From IMG/VR virus record IMGVR_UViG_3300027754_000089, positions 1 to 62,891 of that record: DNA of 62,891 bases; one strand, 5' to 3'. Numbering within the stretch: position 1 is the first letter of the stretch; the number at the start of each line of letters is the position of its first letter. The notes under the pieces were generated by a model, which was given only the letters and a program-made list of their open reading frames with translations, did not search any database and was not told the DNA's origin. Positions 1,360-62,472 of the stretch are shown here, piece after piece. Source of the DNA: a virus. Lineage: Duplodnaviria > Caudoviricetes. Both the position numbers and the translations under genes were made by a program.

Positions 1360-1380
1360 AAAAATAAAGAGGAGAAGAAG

Positions 1381-1827
1381 ATGATAATTGATGATGAAGC
1401 CCCTCCAGTGGAGGAAACAAAAAACGAAATAGCTAACGTGTCTATGGATAAGTTAGCTAAAGTTTACCGCAAGATGTCCGCACGTGTTCAAGAGTTAACG
1501 CAAGCTTACGAGAACGAAGTTGAGCAAATAAAAGCCCAACAAGAACAAGTAAAGAATGCGCTCAAGGATATGATGTTGGCGTTAGGCGTGAGCTCTGTTC
1601 GCACAGATCAGGGCACAGTAGTGTTGTCTACCAAGACACGCTATAACACACAAGACTGGGACTCGTTTAAAACATTCATGCTTGAGCATGATGCAATTGA
1701 CTTGTTGGAAAAGCGCATTGCGCAAGGCAACATGGCAAAGTTTTTAGAAGAGAACCCCGGCCTTTTACCCCCCGGCTTAAACTCAAATACTGAGTACGCC
1801 ATTTCCGTTCGCAAACCAACTAAGTAA
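1381..1827 (+). CDS. Phage replication-module protein (coiled-coil N-terminus), function unknown
   Basis: Strong RBS GAGGAG; lies between helicase and SSB-like gene. Confidence 0.7.
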   Translation: MIIDDEAPPVEETKNEIANVSMDKLAKVYRKMSARVQELTQAYENEVEQIKAQQEQVKNALKDMMLALGVSSVRTDQGTVVLSTKTRYNTQDWDSFKTFMLEHDAIDLLEKRIAQGNMAKFLEENPGLLPPGLNSNTEYAISVRKPTK

Positions 1828-6365: not shown

Positions 6366-6558
6366 GGGCTTCTTTATTCCAAGCCTTGACTTAGAAAAGA
6401 CGAGGGAACTGGGGCTACGCGCCTCAGTTCGCCATCGCATCAAGTCTCACGCTCGGTTCGGGATCAAGGAAGGGCGGATTGGCGTGTGGTTTTATCGAGA
6501 TTTTCCCGCATCGTATTTGCGAACCGAATCTTCATCTGACGAACCTCATCCAACTTAG
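6325..6558 (+). CDS. Small hypothetical protein, last gene of plus arm
   Basis: YPWxxLKKGEGFFIP...GVWFYR pattern typical of small phage proteins; overlaps both neighbours. Confidence 0.55.
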   Translation: MVIQYPWTLLKKGEGFFIPSLDLEKTRELGLRASVRHRIKSHARFGIKEGRIGVWFYRDFPASYLRTESSSDEPHPT

Positions 6559-9500: not shown

Positions 9501-12500
9501 CGTAAAAAAGCACGGCGACTCATACCGCTTGGCGTAGGTTGCATTTCCATTTGTGCCGCACCAAACGCCATGTCAACCAAGCCTTGTGCGTCAAGGCTTT
9601 CAGGGCGCATACCAAACTTTTGCAATAGTTTACGAAAACTATCTGCAATTTTACTTAGCCACTCACCCAACACACCTTTGATTTTGTTAGGGGTAACGCC
9701 CGCCTTAACCGCTTCTTCAACAGCATACGCCAAGATTTCATCAGATCTTTGACTTGCTGGGGTGTTAGCTTCGTCTACCCGTGCTATAGCTTCTTTAGCA
9801 ATGCGAGACTCTACAGAGTTGTCGTTTCTTTTTGCCCAAGATTCAATAGTGCTACTGAGCGTGTCATACTGTTCTTTGCCAAGTATGTTCTTTAACCCAA
9901 CGTGAGCGCCTACTTCGTGCAGTAAAACACCTAACGCTTGTCCTTGATTAATATTTTCTGCAATTAAAAAAACTTTGTTACCCGCAGTATCTACAAAACC
10001 GCGTGTGTTTGAAGGAATGCGGTCTTTATATTGAGGGTTGCTTTGTAATAGGGCATTAACAGAAGAATAGATTTTAATACGGCCTAGATCAGTAAAGTGT
10101 TTTTTTAATTCTTGATTAACTATAGAAACAGTACTGGGATTATCTGTACTACCGCGAGAAAACCCAATGCCTTTTTCAAGGTCTTCGTCAGCTTGGAAAA
10201 CCAACGGCCCCGCCTTGCCTTCATATATTTGTTCGCGTGTCACGTTAAGCACTTCTTCTGTCAACGCCACGGTTTCAGCAAACAAAGACTGCGCCGCTTT
10301 AGCGGGCATATTAAAGAATTGAGAAAGCGCTTCAACAAATCTAGTAAAAATACTCTTACGTGGTTTGTCTGAAGGAATTTCAGTCAACAGTTTTTGAAAT
10401 TCTCTGTTGGCAAACAACTCTGCAACAAATTCTTTGGCGTTGGTTAAACCGTAAATATCAGAAGGCTTCTTAGCGCCCAAGACCATGCTATGATTTCTAA
10501 AGTATGTTCTGCCTTCTGGCGTAGCTAACCAATCTACAACTTTAAGACGCAAAGCATCCATTTGTTTCATCAACTCAGGCTGCAAGTTCATAGCGCGAAC
10601 AGTTGCAGCATGAGTCAACTCATGCAATAAAACTTTATTAACTTGCGCTGAATTACTATTTACATAAACAACGTCAAGAGACGTGGTATAAATCCCCGAC
10701 GCACGCATTTTACCGTCTACAAGATAATCGTCAGTCATGTAAACACGACCGCTACCATCCATTATGGGGGCTTTAGAAAACACTTCAGCCAACGCATTAA
10801 ACAATTGCCTAACCATTGGAGACGTTGTTTTTTGTGCACCATAACGGGCGGCTTCTTCAAAAGTCAAACCATGCAACGGATGATCTTTTGCTATCGTTGT
10901 ATTAAATTTACGCGCGCCTGCGTTTTCAACAGCTTCTTTAGTCATTGACCGCAATTGTTCAGGTGTAGGTGCGGGTTTAGGTGTAGGTTTAAGTGCTGGC
11001 TCTTTTCTTTTTATTGGTGGATAGTTAATTAATGTTTTTACAGCAATAGGTCTGCTAGGTTTAAAAGGCGGCACTCGCATTGGATCAAAATCATTGTTCA
11101 ACGCATCGTCAATTAAATCGTCTTGTAATTGACTTTCAGGTGCTTTCTCTGCATTCTTTAATATCTTGCGTTCTTCTTTGAACGTGGCTTTAGCCGCTTC
11201 TTTGTTGAGCTTAGCATCTCTTACATACGCTTGTTGTTCAATAGTTAATTTTCTAAGCTCTTCTTTTGCATCATTGCGTTTAGCAACAGCTTCTTTTTTG
11301 GCTGTAGCTTGTTTCTTACGGCCTTCTGCGGTTGCAGATGGGTTGTTGGCAATGTAATCAATTTGTTTTTGTGCGGCAGCAAGTTCAACTTTCTTTACGG
11401 CAATCTGTTCAAGAGGCGTAACTTTGCCTTCGGCTTTTTCAAGTTTAAATTGTCTTTCTTGTTCAGCAACATTTGGTTCTTTAATAGCCGTCTGTATACG
11501 CCCTGTTTTAGTTTTGACTACGCCTTCTACTTTGCGAGTGGATAGTCTTAAAGGACGAATGCCTGACTCTTCGTACATTTGTTTCATGGTTGCTTCTAAT
11601 GTCGCACGTTGTGCTTCATCAAACTCTTCCATTGCTTCTTGTTCTTTACGATAAAATTCGTCAGTACTCGTAATTTTCTGTGGTGCGTTGTCTAATGCGT
11701 TGTATATTTTGTTGTACGAATTTTCCACAGCTTTGGCCGCGGCTTCCATTCCTGCTTTATCACCAGCAATACGTGCTTTTTCATACGCATTTTCGTATTT
11801 GCCAATGGCTCCACGCAAACCATTAACCGTATTTTGTACCGAAAAATTTAACGTATCACGAATAACAATGGTTTTATTGCTGCCGGGCGTACGTTCCAAT
11901 ATAGTGGCAATAGTCGGAGTACCGGGTTCTTTAGCGGGCATACCCGCCGCTTCACGCGCAGCCTCCGCTTTGTTCTTAGCAACTGTTTCTTCGTTCTGAG
12001 CTTTTCTAACAGCTTCTTTTGCGGCTTCTAATTTACGTTCGGCCTTATCGCCTTCGTTTATTAACGCCTTGTCAATAGTGTTGCCTGCTTGTTCTTCAAG
12101 AACTTTTTTCTGTGTGGCACGCGCTTGCTCAAGAGCTTTCTCAATACTATTAAAAATCTTTTTGTGCTTTTCAATGTCTTTAATAATAAATTCAAAACCG
12201 GCACGAATTTTTTTAGTATACGGGTGCAACAACAATTCTTTGGACACATAGTCCAAGCCATCCTCTAGTTCTTCTAGCTTTTTCTTAGCCTGAAAATAAG
12301 CTGTCTCAAGATCAGAAACCATGTTTCCAATTCTTTGACGAGCGGACATGCGTTGTTTTCTAATATTATTGGCTATTTTTATAGCTGTTGTAACAGCAGA
12401 ATCTTCAGCGGTAATTTTAGTCAGCGTTGCACGCGCCGCTTCAACAGGGTTTTTCTTGGACTCCTCAAGCTTTTTGTTGTACGCGTCAATCCGTTTTTGT

Positions 12501-15500
12501 TCTTCTTCAATCTTTCTTGCAATCGTGGCCGCACGCTTGGCTTGGAACTCAACTTGTCTGTTGTCTTCTGCAATAGATGCGCGAAGCTTATTAACTTCAC
12601 CGCTATCAAGGAAATTCATAAAGCGTTTGCTTGTTGTTCTGGTCACGCCTTTCTCAGACGCACCGGGGAACAACTCATTTTGCGCACCCTCATCGGCAAC
12701 GGCACCGCGCATGTTTTTAAGATCTTCCTCCAACTGACGCGGCATCTCCAACGCAAGACCGTTCTCTACACGGCGTACTTGCTCAAGCACAAGGTCTTGG
12801 CTTTCAGGCGATAGGTTTTTAAAATACTTTTGTAGCAACTCAAGTTGCGTAGTGTCTTCTTCAGAAGCTCTATTGAGCGCGGCTTCAAACTGCTGTTCTG
12901 TGGAACGTGTTTGTCCTTGGAACTGTGTCTTAAGTATGGGCGTTACTTTTGTAACTTTTGCATTGCCCTGCTCACGCGGCGCAGGGGCTTCAATGCCAGA
13001 TGCTTCATCAACGGCATCGCGCATTTGGCTACGTAAAGCTTTGGCCGCGGCATCATAGTTGTTGAAAACACGTTGCCCTAAAGGAGCACGGGAGATTTCT
13101 TCTTCTGCACCTCTAACAACTTTGTTAGCGCGCATCTGTGCTTGCGTTGTCTTAACCTGTAAAGGCTCAAAAATACCCGCACCGCGCTCAATCAATTCGG
13201 TTAAAACTTGTTCTAAGTTACCAACCGCATCTGTCTTTTCTTTGATAGATAACGGTGGTAGTTTGGCAATAACACGTTTAGCATCTATTTCATTCAACGC
13301 CAAACCAATAACAGTATCTTTTAAACGCTCTGCGGCGTTGCGCAATGTTTGGATTCGTGCATCGGAACGATACACGCTGTCTTCTCGTATGCGTTTAATA
13401 AAATCAGACAACCTATCAAAGGCGGTAAGTTGTGCTTGTGCCAAACGTGTAGCTCTGTTGGCACGGATAGTGTCAGGCGTTTGTTTACCTTCAACACCAG
13501 TTTCTTTAGCCAACAACCCTATCTCAAGTTGTCCAGCCCCTTGTTCTGTATCGGGTTCTCTAAGGTCAGCCAGTTGTTTGCGGATTTCTTGAGCACGCGT
13601 AGAGTTATTTGTAGCAAGCGCATACGACAGTTGTGCACGCAAAGAATCTGCTTGGCTTACACGTTCTGCGCCCATGCCTTCCATAACACGACCAACAACA
13701 AGTTTGTCCGTTTGTCTTTTACTTGTCAATATAGAGTCCACAAGCTTGTCCACTTGTGTAGAAACCTGACCCGTAGGTAAAGTAAAAGGCCCGCGACGCT
13801 CTTGCATACGCATCATTGCGTTGCGTTCTGGCGCTAGCTTGGCATTGCGTTCTGCTTCAGCAGTGGCTTCATCTTCTTGTTTACGTACGTTATCAAGATA
13901 CTCACGCTCTTGATCTTCAATTTCTTGTGGGCCGGGTTCATATGCGCGTGCTTTGAACGCTTCTTTAGATTCAACAAATTGATTTTTAAACTCACGCTTG
14001 GGCCCAAAGTCAAAGCCCAATTGTTCTTGGCCCGCTTCTTTCTTCAGCGCTTGGATCTCTTCACGTAGCTTTTTGGCTTTCTCAGGATCGTAGGCTGGGC
14101 CTGCCATGTCAGCAAACTCAGCTTCTTTCTTGGCCAATCTGTTCTGTATCTCTTGGGGATTTTTATACCCGCCAAGTTCTTTCAGTTGTTCATCAACGTA
14201 TTTCTTTTCATTGCGCAACAAGTTGCCCTGACGTTGCAATTTCTCATGCGCGTCATAGTCTTTTTTGGCTACGGCGTTGGACTCTTGTTCTTGATGTGCC
14301 TCTAAAAGACGTTCTAGTTCCTGCTGTTTTTGAGCAAACTCAACAACTTTCTTTTTGTTTTCGTCTTCAACTTGTTCTGAAGGTTTAACTTCTTCCGGAA
14401 CTTCTACGGGCTCCATACCGGGCAATGTGCCCTGTGCACTCTGGTAATACTCTTGTTGTGTCGGCCCTTGCGGTACTTCTTGAGCCGCCTGTTGTTCTAT
14501 GTTGGCATAGCGCTGTTCTTGTGCTTGCTGTGCTGCGCCCTTAACGCGGCGATACTCGCCCACTTGTTCTGCAAGCTGTTTGCCAATCTCTTTAAGCTGG
14601 GCACGAGCCGCCTTATAGGCGTCAATCTCTTCAAAAGATGCGCCTTTGCCGGGTCTTTTTATGGCTTTGAGATCGCGGAACTGCTTATCCAAAGCCTCGT
14701 AATTGTTAACAAACTCCGTGGCGTACTCAGGCGTTTGTTTGCGTGCTTCTAATTGAGCCGCTTCTTCTGCCTGTACGCGCTGAGCTTCTTCCTCCTGCCC
14801 CATCTGCTCCATGCGAGCTTTACGTTGTGCAATTTGTTTCTCTTGCTCAACTTGTTGTCTAGCACCACCGCGCTCAGACAAACGACCCGCCGCACCCATA
14901 GGCGCCAACAACCCAACTTGATATGCTGTCTGGCCATACTCGCGTAACGCGTCATCACTGGTAAGGGATAACCCTGCCTGTGAACGCTCCAACATTTGTT
15001 GTGCAACTTCTGTGGGAATCTCAGCCAATGCGCCTGTGGCTGTACCTTTTGCAAGAGTAGTAAGTAGCTTTTCTTCTGCCAACTTAGCGGCGTTGGCTCC
15101 TCCGCCCAATAGTGCTTTCTCAGGAATGCCAGTCAACTTACTGACAAGACGCCCGCCCAAAGGAATAAAGTTACCAGCAACATCTAACGCGGCTTGAGGC
15201 ACTGCTGCAAACCCAGCTTTCTCTCTGTTAATTTTTACAGGTTCACCACGCGCAGTTTGTTCTTCTGCTTGGCGTTCAATGTTGCCACCAAATTGAGTCA
15301 ATAAAGAAGGTACTGCGGCTCCGGCTAAACCACCAATAAGCGCACCCGTTGGGCCTGCAATTGAACCAAGGGCGGCACCTGCTCTAGCGCTACCAGCAAG
15401 AGCGGCAATGTTGGGGGCTTGTTCTGCTAATGCTGCGGGGATTTGACTGACTACTTCGCCTGCCGCAGGAAGAATGCCTTTTTCTTTGTATGCCTTGATT

Positions 15501-15808
15501 ACTTTATCAAGACTGGTTTGTTCAGCGTAACGCTCACCAATGTCTTTGCCACGTGAAATACCGGCTTTAGCCGCTTCCTCTGGACTACCGCCTAACAAAG
15601 AAGAAATACCTGTACGTGCTTGAGAGATGAGGGACTCAGCGCCTTTGCTTACTGCGGCACCAAGTCCTTTTTTAGAGTACCCAACTTGTTCATAGAACTC
15701 GGGTAGCGGGATGTCTGGGTAAAACTTTTCGTGAAGTGCGTCTGCTAGTTGCTTGTCGCTTAAGTCCTTGTACTGTGGAAACTTACTACGTACTTCACTG
15801 ATGTTCAT
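6464..15808 (-). CDS. Giant (3114 aa) virion ejection / large polyvalent protein with zincin-like motifs and probable LPD38-type C-terminus
   Basis: Last gene of structural arm; Ala/Gly hydrophobic N-terminal region, long coiled coils, HELTH and HEVGAH motifs, C-terminal IPFFNAQIQ...RLPIPFEIG pattern. Confidence 0.75.
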   Translation of the reverse strand: MNISEVRSKFPQYKDLSDKQLADALHEKFYPDIPLPEFYEQVGYSKKGLGAAVSKGAESLISQARTGISSLLGGSPEEAAKAGISRGKDIGERYAEQTSLDKVIKAYKEKGILPAAGEVVSQIPAALAEQAPNIAALAGSARAGAALGSIAGPTGALIGGLAGAAVPSLLTQFGGNIERQAEEQTARGEPVKINREKAGFAAVPQAALDVAGNFIPLGGRLVSKLTGIPEKALLGGGANAAKLAEEKLLTTLAKGTATGALAEIPTEVAQQMLERSQAGLSLTSDDALREYGQTAYQVGLLAPMGAAGRLSERGGARQQVEQEKQIAQRKARMEQMGQEEEAQRVQAEEAAQLEARKQTPEYATEFVNNYEALDKQFRDLKAIKRPGKGASFEEIDAYKAARAQLKEIGKQLAEQVGEYRRVKGAAQQAQEQRYANIEQQAAQEVPQGPTQQEYYQSAQGTLPGMEPVEVPEEVKPSEQVEDENKKKVVEFAQKQQELERLLEAHQEQESNAVAKKDYDAHEKLQRQGNLLRNEKKYVDEQLKELGGYKNPQEIQNRLAKKEAEFADMAGPAYDPEKAKKLREEIQALKKEAGQEQLGFDFGPKREFKNQFVESKEAFKARAYEPGPQEIEDQEREYLDNVRKQEDEATAEAERNAKLAPERNAMMRMQERRGPFTLPTGQVSTQVDKLVDSILTSKRQTDKLVVGRVMEGMGAERVSQADSLRAQLSYALATNNSTRAQEIRKQLADLREPDTEQGAGQLEIGLLAKETGVEGKQTPDTIRANRATRLAQAQLTAFDRLSDFIKRIREDSVYRSDARIQTLRNAAERLKDTVIGLALNEIDAKRVIAKLPPLSIKEKTDAVGNLEQVLTELIERGAGIFEPLQVKTTQAQMRANKVVRGAEEEISRAPLGQRVFNNYDAAAKALRSQMRDAVDEASGIEAPAPREQGNAKVTKVTPILKTQFQGQTRSTEQQFEAALNRASEEDTTQLELLQKYFKNLSPESQDLVLEQVRRVENGLALEMPRQLEEDLKNMRGAVADEGAQNELFPGASEKGVTRTTSKRFMNFLDSGEVNKLRASIAEDNRQVEFQAKRAATIARKIEEEQKRIDAYNKKLEESKKNPVEAARATLTKITAEDSAVTTAIKIANNIRKQRMSARQRIGNMVSDLETAYFQAKKKLEELEDGLDYVSKELLLHPYTKKIRAGFEFIIKDIEKHKKIFNSIEKALEQARATQKKVLEEQAGNTIDKALINEGDKAERKLEAAKEAVRKAQNEETVAKNKAEAAREAAGMPAKEPGTPTIATILERTPGSNKTIVIRDTLNFSVQNTVNGLRGAIGKYENAYEKARIAGDKAGMEAAAKAVENSYNKIYNALDNAPQKITSTDEFYRKEQEAMEEFDEAQRATLEATMKQMYEESGIRPLRLSTRKVEGVVKTKTGRIQTAIKEPNVAEQERQFKLEKAEGKVTPLEQIAVKKVELAAAQKQIDYIANNPSATAEGRKKQATAKKEAVAKRNDAKEELRKLTIEQQAYVRDAKLNKEAAKATFKEERKILKNAEKAPESQLQDDLIDDALNNDFDPMRVPPFKPSRPIAVKTLINYPPIKRKEPALKPTPKPAPTPEQLRSMTKEAVENAGARKFNTTIAKDHPLHGLTFEEAARYGAQKTTSPMVRQLFNALAEVFSKAPIMDGSGRVYMTDDYLVDGKMRASGIYTTSLDVVYVNSNSAQVNKVLLHELTHAATVRAMNLQPELMKQMDALRLKVVDWLATPEGRTYFRNHSMVLGAKKPSDIYGLTNAKEFVAELFANREFQKLLTEIPSDKPRKSIFTRFVEALSQFFNMPAKAAQSLFAETVALTEEVLNVTREQIYEGKAGPLVFQADEDLEKGIGFSRGSTDNPSTVSIVNQELKKHFTDLGRIKIYSSVNALLQSNPQYKDRIPSNTRGFVDTAGNKVFLIAENINQGQALGVLLHEVGAHVGLKNILGKEQYDTLSSTIESWAKRNDNSVESRIAKEAIARVDEANTPASQRSDEILAYAVEEAVKAGVTPNKIKGVLGEWLSKIADSFRKLLQKFGMRPESLDAQGLVDMAFGAAQMEMQPTPSGMSRRAFLRGAVAAVGGMQLPAVNMGMSLDAKAKLFNATLNAADSWFSTAIGMAKTPALRNIVKQYSFDIDNDVFAEALYNADSDIEGKESLYSHLHWESYGNGDSTESLIDLLKSKPDAVEKLQAAVLNVRSQLVATIDKLPKKENGEIAENELPEVGELLFSVKPKYVSAELAAAGHIADQFVAKQKNIKQRVQAASGGWLGLETQFVDRFAGFEKLSKLMEPLRGSQMMFYLRMYDQRMNFVAQSVARGAPQIVEKIRADGKKEYLIEATEGDSLKGVVETLKEATPLVGNGEAVNRLFTLYMSAVRVKDKGIGSLNFNGRVTEADLAAAVKAVENTPGLKKIFEAARHEYNGYNKNLINFLVQTGAISKEHAANLLKENDYIPWYRQRNGVAELVIGSETPVRIGSIAEQPYLQELVGGDEPILDFMTSSVQNTNMLADMGLRNLATKNAVFELANMGLAKIGGGRSTSGPDVVKFKDNGQDKYALIDTDQVGIPADILVKGMEGIPTQMPAMMRLLAAPAQLLRKAVTLSPLYAAKQLFRDSVAAPLLAGADFTPVMGAIREIGSPTKEILEKRGITGGQIFTGTSEDLTKILKDITAGRSNWSQLIAKAEAINMEADAATRRAQYNSYIKQGLSEMEATLMSLESMNFNKRGASPSVHWMNAMIPFFNAQIQSMNVLYKALTGKLPFNERLKIQEKLLTRGLMVAAGTLAYANMMQDDEAYKNATPEQKYGNWFIRIPGVDEPIRLPIPFEIGYIFKALPEALYNTMKNKHGGEEAVKAFEQILLQTIPGGTSYGIPQALRPAIEAGLGKSFYTGRDTLTPHEAALMPEYQFRANTTEVSKLIGKVAGVSPIKLDELIRGYTGTMGLAFAQAVSMGVPTGESPEKAYKRLSETPVVGGLFQPNDAGGIITSVYDKLADLKKLETTVDDLITKGEKAEAMRLVQTRSNDYMMASMSDYYTSTMRDLTAYENAIRSTSMSGEDKRSKLDEVRQMKIRFANTMRENLDKTTRQSALP

Positions 15809-41103: not shown

Positions 41104-41290
41104 TGGCTTTTTCAACTTTCTCAAGCAGGTCAATTAAATAACGCTCTGCAATGGCTAGACCCGAAATAACACCACAGAGTTTTTGATATTCATCGAAAGT
41201 GCGACATTGACCCCCAGCGATATCATCGCAATAGTTGTTCATGTCGGTGCGTATTTGTTCGCGCAATACGCGTGCGAAGTCTTGGATCAT
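41096..41290 (-). CDS. Small hypothetical protein
   Basis: AAGGAG RBS; YQKLCGVISGL. Confidence 0.7.
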   Translation of the reverse strand: MIQDFARVLREQIRTDMNNYCDDIAGGQCRTFDEYQKLCGVISGLAIAERYLIDLLEKVEKANE

Positions 41291-43797
41291 TTAGGTACTT
41301 TCTCCTTTGGTTGCCGCGTGTTTGCGGCATGTTGAAGCGCAGTGGTTCTTGCTTGTAACTCCATCTGTGCTTTATTCTTGGCAATGTCAGCGCCCATTTG
41401 GACGCCCATTCGTTCTTGTTCAGATTGAGCTTTGGCTTGGCTTTCTTTGATTTGCGCGCCAACACGTAAGGCATCCAACTCCAACTGACCTTGAACTTTC
41501 TGTTCTTCAAGCTTTTGCTTGTCTGCGTCTCTTGCCAAATCTCCAGTAATCTTGATACCTTTGAGTTCAACTTCTTTCTGACGAATAGCCAAGTCTTGTT
41601 GTTGCATCTGCACCAAAGGATCCTGCATCTGTTGCTGGGCTTGCTGTTGTGCCGCTTGTGCCTGATCTTGTTGCAACACTTGATTGGCCGCTTGCGCCAT
41701 CATGGAAGACAGAGCCAACTCCAACTGTGGTGAAAGCTTCTCGTCTTCGGGAGGCATAGGCATACCCAACTGTTGCTCCACTTTTTGCCTGTACATATAT
41801 CCAGCATGTTCAGCCATATGCGCTTGTACAGCAGCCATCATTTGTTGCGCCATTGGGTTTTGTCCAATCACTTGCATGATGGCGGGGTTCTGCATCAAGG
41901 ACATGTGTACGCTGATATGCGCTTGGTGATCCTGATACATAAACGCTTTTAGGGGTTTACCTTTAAGAGCCTGCATATTCTCAGACACGGGGTCTGTTGG
42001 TTTCTGGTCATCTGGCAGGGGCACAAGCTTCTCAGCATTCTTAATGCCCAACACATCCAACATTGACCTGTGCAACTGTGGCAAGTCATAAATTTGAGGC
42101 GCCATCTGCGCCATCTGGATCACGGCCTGATACTGCACCACGCGTTGACTCATCGTTGCGGCATTTGGGTCACTTACGGGAATGACGTCCACCAAGTCGT
42201 AATCTTCCTTCTTGGCTTTCTTTGAACCATACTCAGGCTCATACGTGTAGGAAGTATCCGTGTAATCCCGTATGAGGTTTTTGATGAGCTTTAACTCTTG
42301 CTTTAAAGCAAAGTGCACACGCGCTTGGACTGCGGTCAATACTTTCAACTGGCGCTCAAGGAGGGCAAGCGTTGTACCTACAGGTGCTTGGCTAGACATG
42401 TCACTGATGTTCATGTCTGCTGTTGCCGCAAATCTTCTGCCTTCTTCAACAATCTGGTTCATCAAATTGAACAGTACGTTGCTAGGTTCTTTGTAAGGCA
42501 GCGGTAAGATTGAGTCTCTGATGTTGCCAGATGCAACGTCTACGTCCCTGAACTCACCCGGGGCAATCGGCGTGTCATCACCCTTGATGCGAAGTCCTCG
42601 GGACTTAAGACCGCCGGGGAGATTGGAGAGGGTGCCTGCATCAACAAGTTGACGCATAATGCTTGTAGCGGATTTGGCAAATCCTCCAATGAGGTGAAAG
42701 AGTCCAAAGCCATAGGCTCCAAAGCCGGGGATGTATTGGTAGTGGACAAAGTGTTGTCGTTTGAGTTTGAGCTCATCTCCCTCTTCCCAGTTCCGCCTAA
42801 TAGATAAGACTTCATTGCTTCCTTTGATTAGGGTTACGACGTATGGTAAACCAATGCCGGTCTCTTCGCCATCTTCATCTTCGTCTTTGTAGCCTTCCAA
42901 GTCCAAGTCAACGTGGCACTCATACAAAGTGTAGCGGTCATCGTTTAAGTCGCTAAAGCCTGTCTCTTTGTCCTTGGCTTGCTTGATGTCGTTTCTTTCT
43001 TTTGTAGGTTCTGCTAACTCTACGTCAAGATAGAACCCTGCTTGCTGTAGTTTAAGAATTTCGTTCTTGGTTTTCCTCATCACATGCGTTACACGGTAAC
43101 AAGTGTCCATGTCTGTTGCGCCATATGGAAGCAGCATGTCCTCCGCAGGCACAAACACACTGACCTGACGGCCAAGACCGGGATCGTAGTAGACTTTCTT
43201 AAACGCAGAACCCGTGGCTGGGAGACTCCACAGCATCCTTTCATGTTCGGGACGGAACTCTTTCATGGTCTCCGTCAGCTCATAATTCATGTCGTTCTCG
43301 ACATTGGTGGCTTTTTCTTTTAACTCTGGCGTCTCTTTACCCAATAGTTTGGTACGTACTGGCCCCTGTGCAGGGAATGTTTCTGTAATGGTCTCGGCTT
43401 GGAAGCGCACAACGGCCTCAGTAATCATAGGGTGGAACACGCCACACGCGCCGTCCCAAGGTTCTGTCCGGTTCTCAATCTGTAACCCAAGAAGCTTTAG
43501 TCCTTCTGTGTAGGCTTTCTCCCACTCTTTACGCGAACCACGGTCTTGGTCAATGTCAGAGTCCAAATCTCCTGCCAAAGAAGACAAAGCGCCTTCGTCC
43601 ATGTACTCGGCCAAGTTATCGCCAAAGCCTTCTTCATCGTCTTCACCGGGTTTGAGCTTGATCTCCATGTCCCCCGCTTTGATGCTGACTTCTTCAGGAT
43701 CAACGATCTCAATCTCTAAAGGTTCTTCTTCCTCAGCCAAAGCGTCTATGCCTTGCGGTGCTTGATACAGGGATTTGTCAAAATTACTTGTTGCCAT
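41287..43797 (-). CDS. Portal protein (P22-like, long Q-rich C-terminal barrel)
   Basis: 836 aa after terminase; GSAFKKVYYD; Q-rich coiled-coil tail. Confidence 0.88.
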   Translation of the reverse strand: MATSNFDKSLYQAPQGIDALAEEEEPLEIEIVDPEEVSIKAGDMEIKLKPGEDDEEGFGDNLAEYMDEGALSSLAGDLDSDIDQDRGSRKEWEKAYTEGLKLLGLQIENRTEPWDGACGVFHPMITEAVVRFQAETITETFPAQGPVRTKLLGKETPELKEKATNVENDMNYELTETMKEFRPEHERMLWSLPATGSAFKKVYYDPGLGRQVSVFVPAEDMLLPYGATDMDTCYRVTHVMRKTKNEILKLQQAGFYLDVELAEPTKERNDIKQAKDKETGFSDLNDDRYTLYECHVDLDLEGYKDEDEDGEETGIGLPYVVTLIKGSNEVLSIRRNWEEGDELKLKRQHFVHYQYIPGFGAYGFGLFHLIGGFAKSATSIMRQLVDAGTLSNLPGGLKSRGLRIKGDDTPIAPGEFRDVDVASGNIRDSILPLPYKEPSNVLFNLMNQIVEEGRRFAATADMNISDMSSQAPVGTTLALLERQLKVLTAVQARVHFALKQELKLIKNLIRDYTDTSYTYEPEYGSKKAKKEDYDLVDVIPVSDPNAATMSQRVVQYQAVIQMAQMAPQIYDLPQLHRSMLDVLGIKNAEKLVPLPDDQKPTDPVSENMQALKGKPLKAFMYQDHQAHISVHMSLMQNPAIMQVIGQNPMAQQMMAAVQAHMAEHAGYMYRQKVEQQLGMPMPPEDEKLSPQLELALSSMMAQAANQVLQQDQAQAAQQQAQQQMQDPLVQMQQQDLAIRQKEVELKGIKITGDLARDADKQKLEEQKVQGQLELDALRVGAQIKESQAKAQSEQERMGVQMGADIAKNKAQMELQARTTALQHAANTRQPKEKVPK

Positions 43798-44539: not shown

Positions 44540-46069
44540 TTAATAGTATGCAGCGTGACGACTACGGAAAATAGACGGCTCGTCCTTTTCGTCTGAGTCT
44601 AACGAAATAAAGCCACCTTGCCTATAGCGAAGTAATGCTTGCGATGTTGTATCTACATAGTCGTCGTGCTCTCCTACAGGGAAAGACGCAACTTCTTCTA
44701 TCACTTCTCTGGCCCAGCGTGTGTCTGGTGCCCAGATTTTTCCTGAGCTGAATAGATCTGCCACGGCGTTGAGGCGCACCATCTTGTCATTACCTCGGCT
44801 AGGGCTGAACTCTTGAACAGGGATTCCCATACTGCGTAGCTCTTGGATAAGCGGCGCTCCTGCCGCCTTCTTTTCAACAATGAACGCATCGGGTTCCCAC
44901 TCCTTGTAATGTTTCAACGCCACTTGTTTCAATTCAGGAAATGCCATTCTATCCTTGAACGCGTCAAGGAGTATGACCTGTGGGCTGTCGTTTTCTTCTT
45001 CGTTGTAAAAAACTCCCCACGTTGTGCACGCACTGTAGTCAGAGTTGTTCTTGGTCTCAAACGCCGTATCCCAAGACTGTATGACGTACTCACACTTGGG
45101 TGGCTCGTCTGCTGTCCAGATGCGCCAATGCTTTCTGGAAATAATAGCGCTGTTGTCTGATGTGGGTTGCTGCATGTACTGGGCGTTCCAGTACTTTGGA
45201 TCCAAAGATGCTTTTGTTTTCTCAAGGGCTTCAATCGGCCACTGCTCTGGCCATAGGGATTTACCCGAAGGCAGTATTGCAGGCAACTCTACAATATCCC
45301 AAGTTTCCGCTTCAGGGTTTTTGGTTTGGTAATCAAGCAGTTTGCCCGTCAGATCTAGGAGCGACCAGCGCGTCATAATCACAATAATTGCCCCACCCGG
45401 CATCAAACGCTGCAACGGGCCCGTTTGAAACCATGACCATGCCGAGTCAAAAGCCAAACGACTGTTGGTTTTTACATCTTGCTCAGAATGAGGGTCGTCA
45501 ATAACAAACAAATCAGCGCCACGGCCAGCCAAAGCGCCGCCAACACCGGCTGCGTAGTATTGTCCACCAGCCGCAGTAGACCATTTACCAGCCGCCTTCT
45601 GATCCTCCGCAATGAGTGTGTTAGGAAAAATATCACGGTATTCCTCCGAATCAATTAAATTACGCACTCTGCGTCCAAAATCTTCTGAGAGTCCAGCGGT
45701 GTGGGTTCCCATGATGATCTTCTTCTCAGGAAACTTGCCTAAAAAATAAGCAGGAAACAAATAAGATGAAAACTCAGATTTTCCATGACGCGGTGCAATA
45801 TTTATGATTACGCGTTTTTTTGTTCCGCTGATGACATCTTCAAATATTTTGGCTAATTTCCTGTGATGTGGCCCCGTTTTAAAGCCGGGGTATACGGCGT
45901 TGGCAAACCCTAGAATGCTGTTCTGAGATGCAATGAGGCTGGCACGTTTCTCTTGGGCGTCAATGTCTTGGAGCAATTCCAGCTTCTCCTCCTTTGACAT
46001 GCGTGGGAGGTTTTGGGTAATGAGCTTGGACTCAAGTGGCGTCAGGCTCGTGATCTTGCTCAAGTCCAT
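44540..46069 (-). CDS. terL: Terminase large subunit
   Basis: APRHGKS Walker A, IDDP Walker B, SWDTA and HDDYVD nuclease motifs. Confidence 0.95.
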   Translation of the reverse strand: MDLSKITSLTPLESKLITQNLPRMSKEEKLELLQDIDAQEKRASLIASQNSILGFANAVYPGFKTGPHHRKLAKIFEDVISGTKKRVIINIAPRHGKSEFSSYLFPAYFLGKFPEKKIIMGTHTAGLSEDFGRRVRNLIDSEEYRDIFPNTLIAEDQKAAGKWSTAAGGQYYAAGVGGALAGRGADLFVIDDPHSEQDVKTNSRLAFDSAWSWFQTGPLQRLMPGGAIIVIMTRWSLLDLTGKLLDYQTKNPEAETWDIVELPAILPSGKSLWPEQWPIEALEKTKASLDPKYWNAQYMQQPTSDNSAIISRKHWRIWTADEPPKCEYVIQSWDTAFETKNNSDYSACTTWGVFYNEEENDSPQVILLDAFKDRMAFPELKQVALKHYKEWEPDAFIVEKKAAGAPLIQELRSMGIPVQEFSPSRGNDKMVRLNAVADLFSSGKIWAPDTRWAREVIEEVASFPVGEHDDYVDTTSQALLRYRQGGFISLDSDEKDEPSIFRSRHAAYY

Positions 46070-46643
46070 GCGGTTCCAAGTCTGTTATTTCATCTTTGTT
46101 GGCCAGTACGTCCACTACATCCATCAAGCGATTGAGCTTGTCTTTGATGCGGTTGTCCAACTCATCGTCAGTCATTTCCGCTTTCTTGACCTCAATCTTC
46201 TCAGTGAAGAGCCCAACTTCGGTTACCTTACCCAGCAGTCCCAGCGCTTTAAGTCGTATGTTGGCGTTGGGAGATTGAGTCTCCTCAACGATTTTGGCCA
46301 CTGTGTACCCACGAAGCTCCCGCGCCATATCAATAAACGCCCAGTCATAAGCGCTCAACATTCCTGTCAGGTGCCTTACAGCTTCTGGGGTTTTAAGTTC
46401 GGCAAGAGATGCTTTTTGTTCTAGGGTGTCTGTTGTAATGGTTAACGACCCAAAAGCTTTACGGGCGGCATTGGTTTCTTTTTCCTTGACCAGATCTTCA
46501 TCAGACTCTACGCCAAGTTCTTCTAACCACTTTGTTGTGGCGTATTGCGCCGACACGATTTCATTGGGCGAAGCGTCGTCCAATTTTAAGAAGCCATCCC
46601 GAGAGGTGACCTCGGGTTCATAATGCACCAAGTGATCTAACAT
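46032..46643 (-). CDS. Probable terminase small subunit
   Basis: Upstream of and overlapping terL; RLKALGLLGK motif; likely ATG at 46643. Confidence 0.65.
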   Translation of the reverse strand: MLDHLVHYEPEVTSRDGFLKLDDASPNEIVSAQYATTKWLEELGVESDEDLVKEKETNAARKAFGSLTITTDTLEQKASLAELKTPEAVRHLTGMLSAYDWAFIDMARELRGYTVAKIVEETQSPNANIRLKALGLLGKVTEVGLFTEKIEVKKAEMTDDELDNRIKDKLNRLMDVVDVLANKDEITDLEPHGLEQDHEPDAT

Positions 46644-46657
46644 TTTTGCGTAGGCCC

Positions 46658-46686
46658 TTGCAACCTCGATAGCGTTAATGTACACT
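46658..46686 (+). promoter_or_regulatory. sigma70-like promoter for candidate sRNA
   Basis: TTGCAA-17-TACACT. Confidence 0.6.
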
Positions 46687-46692
46687 ACATTT

Positions 46693-46778
46693 GAAGTCTA
46701 GTGCAAGCAGTTGCCTTACTTCTCCTCTTGGTTTTGCAAAGAAACCATTCGCCCCACCTGTGCGTGGGGCTTTTTTTA
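46693..46778 (+). ncRNA. Candidate anti-Shine-Dalgarno small RNA
   Basis: Promoter, unpaired CTTACTTCTCCTCT between hairpins, intrinsic terminator; no credible ORF. Confidence 0.55.
46751..46778 (+). terminator. Intrinsic terminator
   Basis: GCCCCAC-CTGTGC-GTGGGGC followed by T7. Confidence 0.85.
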
Positions 46779-47046
46779 TGGGGTTGTGTCTAAAGTTTGA
46801 CAGAAGGTTTTTTAGAATTTTTATAAAATTTGTGGGGGTATTGTGTTTGTCAAAAGCGCCTAGCGTTGCCAACTACCCGACAGAAGGGGACATAAGGTAA
46901 CTAAAGTATTACAAAGTTATTGAGAATGGTTGTGGAACAGTGTTCATGGTCAACGGAGGGTGGCGGTCGTAAAGTCGGTGGTGGGGGTACGGTGGGTCAA
47001 CGCCCACAGCAATTCGGTGCTGTCAAGGGTATTGCTAAACGTGCTG

Positions 47047-47055
47047 TGCTATAAT
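47047..47055 (+). promoter_or_regulatory. Extended -10 early promoter
   Basis: TGCTATAAT about 80 bp upstream of first early gene. Confidence 0.65.
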
Positions 47056-47133
47056 AGAGGCATCGGTTGGGGGAACTCAATCGGTCGTCAACGCCTCGTA
47101 CGTCAACGAGGTTTTTTTATTGGAGATATTCAA

Positions 47134-47505
47134 ATGCCTAAATTTAACTTCACACCTGTTCAACAAGTCTTCGCTGATGCTGAAAACGATTCTCTGTCTT
47201 ACATGGATAGGTTACTCACACTTGGTATCGCTACCAAGGCTGAGGCTAAGCCACACGCAATGAGCTACGCATCGATCAGGTATGGTGCAAAGATCACAGA
47301 GGGACGTCAGGGCAACGTGTTGCCAAGAAACTCAGATGCTGAGCGTGCGATGTATCGGGTGCTTGCCTTGTGCTTTCCCAGTGCTGACAAACCTGTCAGC
47401 AGTCAGCAAGCCGTTGCCAAGAAGACAGACGAGGTAGCTAAGCTCATCAAGGCTTACGCCAAGTTAACTGGTGCTGAGAAGCGCCGTTTCAAGTCATCTA
47501 TCTGA
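47134..47505 (+). CDS. First early protein, hypothetical
   Basis: GGAG RBS, ATG at 47134. Confidence 0.7.
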   Translation: MPKFNFTPVQQVFADAENDSLSYMDRLLTLGIATKAEAKPHAMSYASIRYGAKITEGRQGNVLPRNSDAERAMYRVLALCFPSADKPVSSQQAVAKKTDEVAKLIKAYAKLTGAEKRRFKSSI

Positions 47506-47581
47506 TGCGTTTTTTCAGTCAGGCGTGCGGGGTGATCTCGCACGTTGTTTCTTTTCATGTCAAACCTAGGAGATATAAACC

Positions 47582-47806
47582 ATGAATGAATACGCACACT
47601 ACCAAGCCCAATACGCTCAAGAGCAATCTGAGAGCGATGCGCTTAATGACTGGCTTGGCTTTCCCAGAGTGGACAAAGCCCACGCCAAGGTCATTGAACG
47701 GCAACTCAATAGAAACCGCCCATCTTGGAAACAAGTACAAGAGCGGTTCTCTTTTGAGGTTGCTTGCGCTAAGTACGAAGAAGCCCTAAAGGGCAAACGC
47801 TATTAA
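47582..47806 (+). CDS. Early hypothetical protein
   Basis: AGGAG RBS. Confidence 0.65.
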   Translation: MNEYAHYQAQYAQEQSESDALNDWLGFPRVDKAHAKVIERQLNRNRPSWKQVQERFSFEVACAKYEEALKGKRY

Positions 47807-47874
47807 GACAACCTAGCCTAATGCTCGCAAGAGCATTGGGGTGCGCTGTTGCACCTTAACTAAGGAGAATCTAA

Positions 47875-48036
47875 ATGAACCATGCTTACCTGTTGAACAG
47901 TAGCTACCCTGCAATCCTACTCATCCTCATGCTGTGCGCTGAACCACAGCCCTTGTGGGATGTAATCGAACCGCTCCATGACGATCTCACCGATGCGGAA
48001 ATTGACGAACTCAACCTAATCTATTCAGGAGAATAA
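47875..48036 (+). CDS. 53-aa early protein (not in ORF track)
   Basis: AAGGAG RBS; MNHAYLLNSSYPAILLILMLCAE...IYSGE. Confidence 0.6.
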   Translation: MNHAYLLNSSYPAILLILMLCAEPQPLWDVIEPLHDDLTDAEIDELNLIYSGE

Positions 48037-58656: not shown

Positions 58657-60635
58657 CAAAACCCTACGACAGAATATTAACAATTGACTTTGAGACGCGT
58701 TGGTCTAAAACAGACTACACGCTCTCTAAGATGACCACAGAGGAGTACATACGAGATGATAGGTTTACCGCGTTCGGAGCTTGTATACATGAGTATGGAA
58801 GCACAGATTCAATTGAATGGTATGGAGGATCAGAACTACCTGAACTCTTTTCAAGTATCGACTGGGGACGAACCGCCGTACTTGCACATAATGCACAGTT
58901 CGATATTGCCATACTCGAATGGGTATATTCCTGTCGACCCGCTTTTATCTTCGACTCGCTATCAATGGCGAGAGCTTTACGAGGCGTGGAGGTTGGCAAT
59001 AGTCTTGCCAAACTTGCGGGAGATTTTGGTCTTCCCCCCAAAGGGCAAGCCATACACAGCACAGATGGTCTGGCCGAGTTGGACGAACACGTGGAACTTG
59101 AACTTGCAGACTATTGCAAACACGACGTATATCTGTGCGAACGAATTTTTGAAAGACTCGTACAGGGGTACCCCACCAAAGAACTTAGACTGATTGACAT
59201 GACGCTAAAGATGTTCACGCGTCCAACGCTAGTGCTTGACCCCCTTAAACTATCCAATGCCATCGAAGAAGAGAGGACATCTCGTGAAGAACTATTACAA
59301 AGACTCGGCGTGGAAGAAGTTGAACTGGCGTCGAATCCAAAGTTTGCTGAACAACTACGAAAACTCGGTGTGGTTCCCCCGACTAAGACGAGTAAAACCA
59401 CAGGGAAAGAAACGCTTGCGTTGGCTAAGAATGACGCCCTTTTTCAGGCGCTCCTTAACGGTCAACGTGAAGACGTTACCCTTCTATGTCAAGCGCGTCT
59501 ACGGGTTAAATCAACAACCGAACGCACAAGGGCGCAGAGGTTCTTGGATATTAGTCAGCGAGGTAGTTTACCGGTTCCGCTCTCGTACTATGGCGCTAAA
59601 AGCGGGCGCTGGTCAGCGTCGAAAGGCTCAGCCATCAACATGCAAAACTTAAAGCGGGGGACAAAGGAACGCCCCTCATTCCTACGCGAAGCAATCATGG
59701 CTCCCGATGGGCATCAGTTGGTTGTTGGGGATCTATCTCAAATAGAACCACGTGTCCTTGCATGGCTTAGTGACTACGAAGATATGCTTAACATCTTTAG
59801 GGCGGGCGGTGACCCGTATGCCGCGTTTGGTGCGCAGATGTTTAACGTACCCGGACTCAGCAAAGACGAACACCCCGAACTTAGGCAGTCAGCAAAGAGT
59901 GCGCTCCTTGGTTGCGGTTACGGACTAGGTTGGGCATCGTTCGCTTCACAACTACTGACAGGATTCCTTGGAGCAAAGCCGGTGCGGTACGAGAAAGCGT
60001 TTGCCAAGACGTTGAGCGTTGATTTAGATTACATGACCAAGTTTTTGGATTGGGATGAGAATGCCCTACGCTTGGAGGAGATCCCGCACACCTGTAGCTC
60101 TAAGGAGCTCTTGATACACGCAGTAGCCTCTAAGAAGATCATCGACATTTACCGCGCCACAGCGTACCCCGTTGTAGCGTTCTGGAGTCTGTGCAACACG
60201 TTGCTAGAAAGATCTTTGTTTAATGGTCAAGAATATAAATATAAATGCTTGACATTTCGCAAAGAAGAAATAGAATTACCAAATGGCATGAAACTTTTAT
60301 ATCCCAATTTGAGGATTGAGAAGGACGATGAGGGTAGGAACCAGTATGTATACGGGTCAGACGCTACCAAGCTTTATGCGGGAAAGATTACGAACAATGT
60401 CACACAAGCGTTAGCGCGCATTGTGATGACGGATGGAATGCTCAGAGTATCCAAAAGATACTTCATAGCAGGTACAGTGCACGACGAACAAATCGTAGTC
60501 GTGCCGGATGCTGAAGTAGAAGAAGCTAAGACTTGGGTCTTGGCGCAAATGACTATGGAGCCAAGCTATATGCAAGGCATACCATTAGACGCAGAGGTTG
60601 GCGCTCACAAGCGCTATGGGTTAGCTAAAAATTAA
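58653..60635 (+). CDS. DNA polymerase family A with 3'-5' exonuclease
   Basis: DFET, HNAQFD, YCKHD exo motifs; DLSQIEPR motif A, RQSAKSALLGCGYG motif B, VHDE motif C. Confidence 0.93.
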   Translation: MTKPYDRILTIDFETRWSKTDYTLSKMTTEEYIRDDRFTAFGACIHEYGSTDSIEWYGGSELPELFSSIDWGRTAVLAHNAQFDIAILEWVYSCRPAFIFDSLSMARALRGVEVGNSLAKLAGDFGLPPKGQAIHSTDGLAELDEHVELELADYCKHDVYLCERIFERLVQGYPTKELRLIDMTLKMFTRPTLVLDPLKLSNAIEEERTSREELLQRLGVEEVELASNPKFAEQLRKLGVVPPTKTSKTTGKETLALAKNDALFQALLNGQREDVTLLCQARLRVKSTTERTRAQRFLDISQRGSLPVPLSYYGAKSGRWSASKGSAINMQNLKRGTKERPSFLREAIMAPDGHQLVVGDLSQIEPRVLAWLSDYEDMLNIFRAGGDPYAAFGAQMFNVPGLSKDEHPELRQSAKSALLGCGYGLGWASFASQLLTGFLGAKPVRYEKAFAKTLSVDLDYMTKFLDWDENALRLEEIPHTCSSKELLIHAVASKKIIDIYRATAYPVVAFWSLCNTLLERSLFNGQEYKYKCLTFRKEEIELPNGMKLLYPNLRIEKDDEGRNQYVYGSDATKLYAGKITNNVTQALARIVMTDGMLRVSKRYFIAGTVHDEQIVVVPDAEVEEAKTWVLAQMTMEPSYMQGIPLDAEVGAHKRYGLAKN

Positions 60636-60647
60636 ACAGGAGAAGTA

Positions 60648-60944
60648 ATGAGAATACCAAAGAGAGTAACTGTAGGTAGCACTAAATACAAAGTATTGGT
60701 GAACGATAGCGAGCTTGAAGAGGATGCAATGGGGGCAATCAACTTTGGTTTAAAAATAATTTCAATAAGAACGCAGTTCAATAACGGCAAACGCATAGCC
60801 AAAGAAGAGGTTAGCGACTCGTTTTGGCACGAGATAACACATGCAGTTTTGTTTGATATGGGGCATGAGCTTTATAACAACGAAGTGTTTGTCCGTTCGT
60901 TTGCCAACAAGTTATCCGATGCAATAGATTCAGCAAGGTTCTAA
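60648..60944 (+). CDS. Small zincin-like metallopeptidase
   Basis: FWHEITHA...NE. Confidence 0.65.
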   Translation: MRIPKRVTVGSTKYKVLVNDSELEEDAMGAINFGLKIISIRTQFNNGKRIAKEEVSDSFWHEITHAVLFDMGHELYNNEVFVRSFANKLSDAIDSARF

Positions 60945-61886: not shown

Positions 61887-62067
61887 TTTGTTGATTAACC
61901 TGTGGGTATGCCGGTTTGGAAACGACTGGGTAGACACGCAAGAGGTGGCAGAAGATGACTTCTTTCAAAAAGTAGGGCGAAGACTACGTGCCGAAGGAGA
62001 ACTGGAGATGCACTATCTCACCGATAGAGCGCGATTAATGTGTAGAAAACCAAAAGAGGAGAAGTAA
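61840..62067 (+). CDS. Hypothetical protein
   Basis: LINLWVCRFGNDWV; ATG at 61840. Confidence 0.55.
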   Translation: MTTDPTQESLTTVPSDLLINLWVCRFGNDWVDTQEVAEDDFFQKVGRRLRAEGELEMHYLTDRARLMCRKPKEEK

Positions 62068-62472
62068 ATGAACATATGTCCACACTGCGAACAAAAGATT
62101 CGCAAACTTAATCCGCATAGGATGTGTAGATCAAAAATTGCTTTGTTGAATTACATTGCACAACAAGAAGATTGGGTAAAAATATCAACAGGTTCTCCAA
62201 GACAAGTAGCCGGAGATGCCGCGGTACTTGCCATTAGATTGGAATGGTTCGGCCTTGTAGAGCATGGCCCTCGCAGATCAGGTTTGTACAGAGCCACGCT
62301 TAACGGCATTAATTTTTTAAAAGGGACTCATGCCGTACCCAAAGTTATTTGGTGTAGAGATGGCAGAGTTATTGATCGTGACACCATGTTGGTAACAATC
62401 GGTAGCGTTAAGCACGTGGTATTAGACAACGCGTATTGGAGCGCGTACCCATCTATGCAGAGGAGCGCATAG
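62068..62472 (+). CDS. Hypothetical protein (CPHC, possible winged helix)
   Basis: GAGGAG RBS; coupled to helicase start. Confidence 0.65.
   Translation: MNICPHCEQKIRKLNPHRMCRSKIALLNYIAQQEDWVKISTGSPRQVAGDAAVLAIRLEWFGLVEHGPRRSGLYRATLNGINFLKGTHAVPKVIWCRDGRVIDRDTMLVTIGSVKHVVLDNAYWSAYPSMQRSA

Follow-up and report, generated by a model that had tools for sequence, protein, structure and literature searches.

The window analysed here is the whole of an IMG/VR virus record (IMGVR_UViG_3300027754_000089; 62,891 bp, estimated completeness 99%), and our subject is a candidate small RNA (sRNA) gene that lies beside terS. The genome is laid out in two divergent arms, with late genes on the minus strand and early/replication genes on the plus strand, and the sRNA unit sits in the 490-nucleotide (nt) control region between them. 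An initial annotation, made from the letters alone, had proposed that this unit encodes an RNA presenting an anti-Shine-Dalgarno (anti-SD) sequence to the ribosome-binding sites (RBSs) of the phage's own early genes. The computational checks suggested there all spoke for it, and its interpretation is supported in part. Judged by comparison with relatives, the unit is a real gene for a conserved, structured plus-strand small RNA, found in more than 100 uncultivated freshwater phages, and the reading that we favour is that this RNA would repress early genes by pairing with their RBSs.

The unit opens on the plus strand with a -35 hexamer TTGCAA (46658..46663), a 17-nt spacer and a -10 hexamer TACACT (46681..46686) set within the palindrome-like block AATGTACACT. 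The predicted transcript is 85 nt long (46693..46777, plus strand), its 5' end being placed 7 nt past the -10 hexamer and its 3' end at the U run. All its parts lie on that strand: stem-loop 1 (46693..46722), with an outer stem GAAGU/ACUUC and an inner stem GCAA/UUGC (46703-46714); stem-loop 2 (46729..46747, UGGUUUU/AAACCA, by fold prediction); and an intrinsic terminator (46751..46777), also called by a terminator scan, whose stem GCCCCAC/GUGGGGC (46751-46770) is followed by seven T (46771-46777), read as U7 in the RNA. Between stem-loops 1 and 2 is the anti-SD stretch UUACUUCUCCUCUU (DNA TTACTTCTCCTCTT; 46716..46729), in which the core UUCUCC shared across the family occupies 46720-46725 and the nucleotides left unpaired in the minimum free energy (MFE) fold occupy 46723-46728. 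The MFE of the predicted sRNA is -30.2 kcal/mol (z-score -3.64), and none of 200 shuffles folds as well. The promoter, the two small hairpins and the GC hairpin with its T run are all found where the initial annotation had placed them, and we likewise see no credible open reading frame (ORF) across the unit, since the two that are listed run through the terminator. A simple promoter scan missed TTGCAA-17-TACACT (score 8 of 12).

Searches of IMG/VR with terL and terS yielded 83 related loci, 72 of which (the window included) have enough upstream sequence. The module is present in 63 of the 72, each time with a hairpin and five or more T behind it on the strand that carries them in the window; among the nine other loci, the T run is imperfect in three (L014, L036 and L037), one (L016) is cut off, and five (L050, L057, L060, L065 and L069) are missing the whole sRNA module. 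Of 57 distinct sequences, 51 keep a TTG at a distance of exactly 17 nt from the -10, and 45 of the 57 have TACACT as the -10 itself, with TATACT, TATAGT, TATATT and TATAAT making up most of the rest. Measured from the promoter, the T run ends after 72-126 nt, in most cases 83-89. Five loci (L021, L026, L047, L058 and L059) carry an insertion of about 35 nt in stem-loop 1, which has a hairpin of its own (UUUGGCC...GGCCAAA) and brings the RNA to 119-126 nt.

A covariance model (R1), built from 24 well-aligned sequences, gives one match per locus in constant orientation, with 69 good matches in 750 kb besides two weak strays, and finds exactly one copy per genome in five complete genomes. Its sole match in the window covers 46699-46777 (27.5 bits, E 5.7e-4), and among the matches listed it recovers 103 of 117 further loci, which had been drawn by sequence pattern. 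Isolated phages are a different matter: blastn of window positions 46000-48000 against them returned no match, and in the nearest isolates, Pelagibacter phages HTVC027P/023P, DSL-LC04 and MinM2 (about 50% terL identity), the sRNA is not detectable beside terL. Phage DSL-LC04 has a weak R1 match elsewhere (L236, 27974-28055, minus strand; 25.1 bits), directly past the stop codon of DNA polymerase I, that consists of GUCUCCUC and then a terminator; it may be a relative derived from a 3' untranslated region or a chance match.

Each RNA of the family has three stem-loops, in the order stem-loop 1, unpaired UUCUCCUU, stem-loop 2, a short U-rich linker and the terminator, and folded examples have z-scores of -3.3 to -5.3. 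RNAalifold on a plain MAFFT alignment gave no pairs because the variable hairpins are misaligned there. Pairs were counted on a model-fitted alignment (61 distinct rows, 1401 pair cells), where the fitting itself favours structure but controls with slid partners come out far lower. Standard pairs fill 92.2% of the cells, compared with 69.5% after shuffling and 37-48% with the partners slid; changes on both sides occur in 24 of 25 pairs; and the covariation score of 0.559 (against 0.203) is reached by none of 500 shuffles. A second set of loci behaves in the same way (91.1% paired, covariation score 0.507 against 0.200). Taken helix by helix, all eight pairs of helix 2 (stem-loop 1) have changed on both sides, with 93.7% of cells paired; helix 3 (stem-loop 2), whose stems vary between lineages, shows double changes in six of six pairs; and helix 4 (the terminator) shows them in nine of ten. 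The bases of the core between helices 2 and 3 have hardly moved. Core columns hold C in 60, U in 60, C in 60 and C in 57 of the 61 distinct rows, all unpaired, so that the CUUCUCC core picked out in the initial annotation is indeed nearly invariant and single-stranded across the relatives.

The alignment also speaks to the strand. It contains 273 G-U cells against 18 A-C cells, and pairing is 92.2% when read on the plus strand and 74.0% on the other; when both orientations are folded, the plus version is the more stable one in 52 of 54 cases (mean -36.4 versus -27.3 kcal/mol for the reverse complement, Wilcoxon p 2e-10). These counts and fold energies, combined with a T run on one side only, indicate that the functional RNA is the plus strand. 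We therefore consider it very improbable that the minus strand is the functional one, with its GGAG and ATG starting either a small upstream ORF or a longer terS, or with the plus RNA serving as a cis-antisense regulator of such a transcript, a role of which the sar RNA of P22 is an example. An ATG, GTG or TTG does stand 2-13 nt past the GAG core in most relatives, and the frame enters terS in 9 of 63 distinct sequences. These ORFs, however, run from 1 to 48 codons in frames that differ relative to the conserved bases; there is no start codon in range in 14 of 59 motif-bearing sequences, including the window, which has an in-frame TAG and no start; and this SD-like motif on the strand opposite the sRNA lies upstream of the conserved minus-strand promoter described below. 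The initial annotation had asked whether the minus-strand GAGGAG is simply the RBS of a translated micro-ORF; no conserved micro-ORF accompanies it, and that candidate was dropped on its variable frames and lengths and its missing starts.

The module lies beside terS (46032-46643, minus strand), which begins at the ATG at 46643, where homology with 69 relatives starts, rather than at the GTG at 46685. We infer a late (terS) promoter on the minus strand at 46677..46706 (-35 TTGCAC at 46706..46701, an 18-nt spacer and -10 TACATT at 46682..46677), and a promoter-like pair on this strand (TTGCRC, 17-18 nt, TACAYT) is conserved in the relatives. The locus would thereby hold two divergent promoters with a common palindromic -10, their transcription starts being predicted; in 64 of 66 R1 matches, among those listed for the pattern-drawn loci, the terS start is found on the opposite strand, 20-50 nt past the -10 that the two promoters share. 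The plus-strand GCAA that is the complement of the minus-strand -35 is at least 90% conserved and fixed in position, whether it falls in a loop or in a stem of the RNA. We also considered that the GCAA/UUGC hairpin is an operator for a protein. One part of the initial annotation is not supported here, namely that the sRNA is antisense to the leader of the late operon: the conserved minus-strand promoter fires away from the sRNA, and therefore the two transcripts should not overlap. With a shared -10, sRNA synthesis and late transcription are likely to be coupled or mutually exclusive.

Such an arrangement raises the question of whether it is the act of transcription that matters and not its product, with a divergent promoter that occludes or insulates the terS promoter and a terminator that stops read-through into the early promoters. 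The overlap of two conserved promoters at a palindromic -10 would suit this explanation, as would the position of the terminator just before a near-consensus early promoter and the promoter-like pair directly before terS in relatives without the module. Occlusion, on the other hand, gives no reason for compensatory and G-U changes to preserve three stem-loops, or for an unpaired UUCUCC to stay invariant, and we regard it as quite improbable. In the five module-less loci named above, the promoter-like hexamers (TTGCTT or TTGCAT, 17 nt, TAGAGT or TACAGT) lie 6-7 nt before the terS ATG, a proximity that suggests a leaderless terS message.

What the unpaired stretch might recognise was the central claim of the initial annotation, and most of what it reported can be recovered. 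The reverse complement of 46716-46729, AAGAGGAGAAGTAA, occurs exactly at 62054-62067, where pairing can be extended to 20 nt with a 2-nt bulge (62046-62067). The partial matches near 60638 and 1367 are present as one-mismatch and two-mismatch copies (60635-60648 and 1367-1380, respectively), and the shorter AGGAGAAG is found at 1830 and 56234. There are four matches in all where 0.47 are expected, a number reached by none of 100 shuffles, although this control is weak because shuffles lose the enrichment of ribosome sites. The best predicted target is the initiation region of the ORF at 62068-62472 (62046..62070, plus strand; 14/14 nt, or 20 nt with the 2-nt bulge; duplex -27.8 kcal/mol), followed by those of the ORF at 1381-1827 (AAGAGGAGAAG; 1367..1383, plus strand; -22.8 kcal/mol) and the ORF at 60648-60944 (AGGAGAAGTAATG; 60635..60650, plus strand; -19.3 kcal/mol).

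The contrast between early and late RBSs that had been noted from the window is borne out and extends to four other complete genomes. In the window, GGAGAA-N2-6-ATG occurs 20 times on the plus strand, every time in the early arm, and twice on the minus strand; the total of 22 compares with a chance expectation of 2.18 and is reached by none of 100 shuffles. Sites of this type are nearly confined to the early arm in five complete genomes: besides the window, early and late counts are 20 and 5 in G001 and 18 and 2 in G002 (both with an ORF filter), 14 and 2 in G008 (leaving out the module's own copy on the late strand) and 21 and 2 in G009. Shine-Dalgarno sites of other types are distributed evenly over the two arms. 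Early genes also share near-identical initiation regions, AAGGAGAAAGCAAATG recurring four or more times in a 2.3-kb stretch of G009 (L232, 5734-7970) and two identical pairs standing in the window (48028/48213 and 51509/51911); these look like repeated cassette junctions in the sequence.

If the RNA reads these sites, its seed and the sites should change together, and the initial annotation had proposed this as a check. The bases flanking the seed match the commonest early site in four of five complete genomes. The window RNA has UUAC-UUCUCC, and its early sites include GGAGAAGTAA twice and GGAGAAGCAA not at all. In G001 the RNA has CAUUGC-UUCUCC and GGAGAAGCAA occurs at five early sites; in G008, with CAUUUGC-UUCUCC, there are five early sites of the form GGAGAAGCAA(A)ATG, at least two of which match over 14 nt; and in G009, with UUUGC-UUUCUCC, the early sites are GGAGAAAGCA in eight cases and GGAGAAGCAA in none. 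Set against each other in a 2x2 table (5,1 / 0,8), G008 and G009 give a value of about 0.003 by hand, with their relatedness uncontrolled. The first 3 kb of the early arm in other loci shows the same but thin trend, GGAGAA being followed by GCA ten times and by GTA once where the RNA is of the UUGC-UUCUCC type. G006, a relative with no R1 match that is 66% complete, has 5 GGAGAA among 20 GGAG-type sites on the early strand and no repeated site.

Sites specific to one class of messages can also have protein readers, as two T4 regulators illustrate. In the excerpts cited, RegB reads an 11-nt site of GGA plus an A-rich tract in early mRNAs (PMC1702504), and RegA acts at the initiation regions of about 30 mRNAs (PMC3014915). 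The early GGAGAA-A-rich sites could by this precedent be recognised by a RegB/RegA-type nuclease or repressor of the phage, the RNA being unrelated to these sites, or the pyrimidine stretch could bind or titrate an RNA-binding protein of host or phage. Since both versions leave unexplained the exact complementarity of seed and flanks to the sites, and their joint change, we give them very little credence.

Based on these comparisons we can outline how the sRNA might act. Host sigma-70 polymerase would transcribe the RNA of about 85 nt from the plus strand, starting at TTGCAA-17-TACACT and ending at the intrinsic terminator. The unpaired UUCUCC(U) would nucleate on early-mRNA Shine-Dalgarno sites of the GGAGAA type, which some 14-21 genes of the early arm carry in each genome, and pairing would spread into the 3' arm of stem-loop 1, over the spacer and, in many genomes, the AUG. 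Binding of the 30S subunit would be blocked, and one RNA could repress a whole temporal class of genes. The shared -10 would tie synthesis of the RNA to the activity of the late promoter, in either direction. Given the canonical anti-SD sequence, the two A that follow GGAG would add pairs with the sRNA and not with 16S rRNA, which would favour the sRNA on exactly the GGAGAA sites. We put the probability of this reading as a whole, a sigma-70-transcribed sRNA of about 85 nt that pairs with early GGAGAA sites and blocks 30S binding, at roughly 0.58. Its bolder form is a class-wide translational off-switch, in which seed and flank co-evolve with a GGAGAA-plus-spacer 'address' on 14-21 early genes and the whole is tied to the start of late transcription; this we hold tentatively and at clearly less than even odds.

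Several observations weigh against pairing with early sites as the function of the RNA. The RNA of G002 has CUCCUCCUU and GCUUUCCUU while its early sites are GGAGAACCACC, a match in the core only. Duplex energy over a 26-nt seed window differs only modestly between early and late sites (p 0.034), and a generic 16S-like anti-SD sequence separates them equally well (p 0.03; difference of differences p 0.89). The part of the RNA that matches the spacer and the AUG is itself paired within stem-loop 1, and the window's best target gene has no homologue in five relatives. The co-variation is drawn from four genomes with kinship uncontrolled, and the comparison with a genome lacking the RNA from a single one that is 66% complete. 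DSL-LC04, with its weak R1 match only, has 11 GGAGAA-type sites in 50 kb, and therefore sites of this type are not unique to sRNA carriers, although its different gene order makes this phage a weak control. Finally, comparison establishes the promoter, the fold, the strand, the terminator, the conservation of the seed, the bias of sites to the early arm and the co-variation of seed and sites, while transcription itself, pairing in vivo, repression, its timing, a carrier state and any need for Hfq are predictions that go beyond it. A search for RNA sequencing runs carrying the phage listed none. Related phages appear in one sequencing run as short contigs only (85-95% likeness); these probably derive from DNA and are uninformative on expression.

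With its own promoter, an unpaired conserved seed and an intrinsic terminator with a U tail, the unit has the features of a base-pairing, terminator-ended (Hfq-type) sRNA, but a scan of the whole window brings no Rfam family up to its gathering score. The best sub-threshold matches are to RF02278, at 20.3 bits in the window and 27.1 bits in L022 against a gathering score of 50, and L022 is the only one of 12 relatives listed for this family at E up to 1. RF02278 belongs to the betaproteobacterial CU-rich 'double-hairpin' or 'toxic' sRNAs (Burkholderia ncS03/05/27/62 and bdhR1), which, together with S17S of Bordetella pertussis, are described in the cited portions of the literature as repressing many targets at the RBS (PMC5688073; PMC11722255; see also PMC4603805). 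The resemblance lies in the layout, which is that of the 3' two-thirds of the phage RNA: the 5' consensus UGUCUCCU aligns to CUUCUCCU of the window and the two hairpins of RF02278 to stem-loop 2 and the terminator, so that in both an unpaired CU-rich stretch complementary to RBSs lies 5' of the first aligned hairpin (in the phage family UUCUCC is conserved in 57-60 of 61 rows). The phage RNA differs in having an extra 5' stem-loop, and thus three hairpins where RF02278 has two (about 57-92 nt). The second CU-rich loop of RF02278, CUCCUC, is unmatched, the loops of stem-loop 2 in the phages varying by lineage and not being CU-rich; RF02278 is present in several chromosomal copies in Burkholderia-like genomes, whereas the phage RNA is a single copy beside terS; and the flanks of the phage seed match the phage's own early genes. 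By analogy, the phage RNA would work like the CU-rich RBS-binding sRNAs of betaproteobacteria, the closest known kind, without being a member of RF02278.

The same likeness raises the possibility that the RNA is real but directed at the host, as a copy or mimic of those sRNAs that reprogrammes the translation of host transporter and metabolic genes, its match to the phage being secondary. The order of unpaired UGUCUCCU, hairpin, AUUca and terminator shared with the best, sub-threshold Rfam match fits this explanation, as does the repression of many host mRNAs at ribosome sites by RNAs of that kind in the sources just cited. It does not account for seed flanks that track the phage's own early sites in four genomes, and we think it unlikely as the main role, though host-directed and phage-directed action are mutually compatible.

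Among phage systems, the lambda PR'-tR' 6S RNA and the nut/put antitermination RNAs also combine a constitutive promoter with a terminator within about 100 nt in a phage control region. The unit described here, by contrast, is oriented away from terS and the rest of the late arm and stops ahead of a distinct, strong early promoter, and its conserved feature is the anti-SD stretch; an element of the nut/boxA or lambda 6S type was dropped because the direction is wrong and the unit ends before another promoter. The P22 sar RNA and the c4 RNA of P1/P7 resemble the sRNA in being small phage RNAs that cover an RBS, but each is directed at one neighbouring or overlapping immunity-region transcript, whereas the sRNA would be trans-acting, with many early genes as targets at distances of up to 20 kb. 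For c4, translation is blocked by pairing around a single RBS, and the phage sRNAs whose descriptions we came across act mostly on one neighbouring message or on host genes, according to the cited portions of a review (PMC12197685). No phage RNA of this design is described in Rfam, among the papers listed by a full-text search on phage-encoded anti-SD small RNAs or in the portions of that review covered here. The functional parallel would be with T4 RegB and RegA, in that early messages as a class would be shut off post-transcriptionally through signals in their initiation regions; the T4 readers are proteins, and here the reader would be an RNA, so that its specificity can be read from sequence.

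The remainder of the control region and the arms on either side can be described briefly. The late arm on the minus strand includes terL (44540-46069), which adjoins terS, and the portal gene (41287-43797), and it ends in an ORF of 3114 aa (6464-15808) whose only Pfam match is an LPD38 domain (large polyvalent protein) at the C terminus. We dropped the idea of an N4-like phage with hairpin promoters, as this protein has LPD38 and no polymerase signal. The early/replication arm runs on the plus strand from 47134 across the end of the record to 6365 and encodes small ORFs, a DNA polymerase, a PD-(D/E)XK nuclease, a SNF2 helicase and a primase-helicase. An AT-rich stretch directly 3' of the sRNA terminator (46797-46829) contains a perfect TTGACA and, 18-19 nt further on, TTATAAA; this element, which a simple promoter scan did not pick up, is probably the main early promoter and is kept in nearly all relatives. 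Further on, an extended -10 promoter, TGCTATAAT (47047-47055), precedes a conserved leader with two hairpins (47047-47133), the second of which (47093-47112) is followed by seven T, resembles a terminator and ends 4 nt 5' of the GGAGA belonging to the first early gene, whose ATG is at 47134. Many relatives keep the promoter at 47047, the first leader hairpin (CATCGGTTGGGGA...) and the position of the second, and this leader is possibly an attenuator or else a second small RNA. Two other elements persist even in relatives without the sRNA, the inverted repeat GGAACAGTGTTC (46934-46945) and the G-rich block GGTGGGGGTACGGTGGGTC (46980-46998); an operator, a packaging site and an origin are candidate roles for them. 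The terL gene does not identify the host, since its matches are contigs of metagenome-assembled genomes from many phyla at 50-76% identity.

In summary, the sRNA beside terS defines a well-supported RNA family that is new to Rfam, in which one conserved RNA appears matched to the RBSs of a whole temporal class of genes and the match drifts jointly across genomes. The mechanism proposed for it is plausible, partly supported and directly testable, with the natural variants of the address, GUAA, GCAA and AGCAA, available as ready-made specificity controls. If the proposal is correct, the sRNA would represent an RNA equivalent of the RegA/RegB proteins of T4 that can be read from sequence alone, and would provide a simple RNA-based timing of the lytic programme, predicted for a large group of uncultivated freshwater phages.

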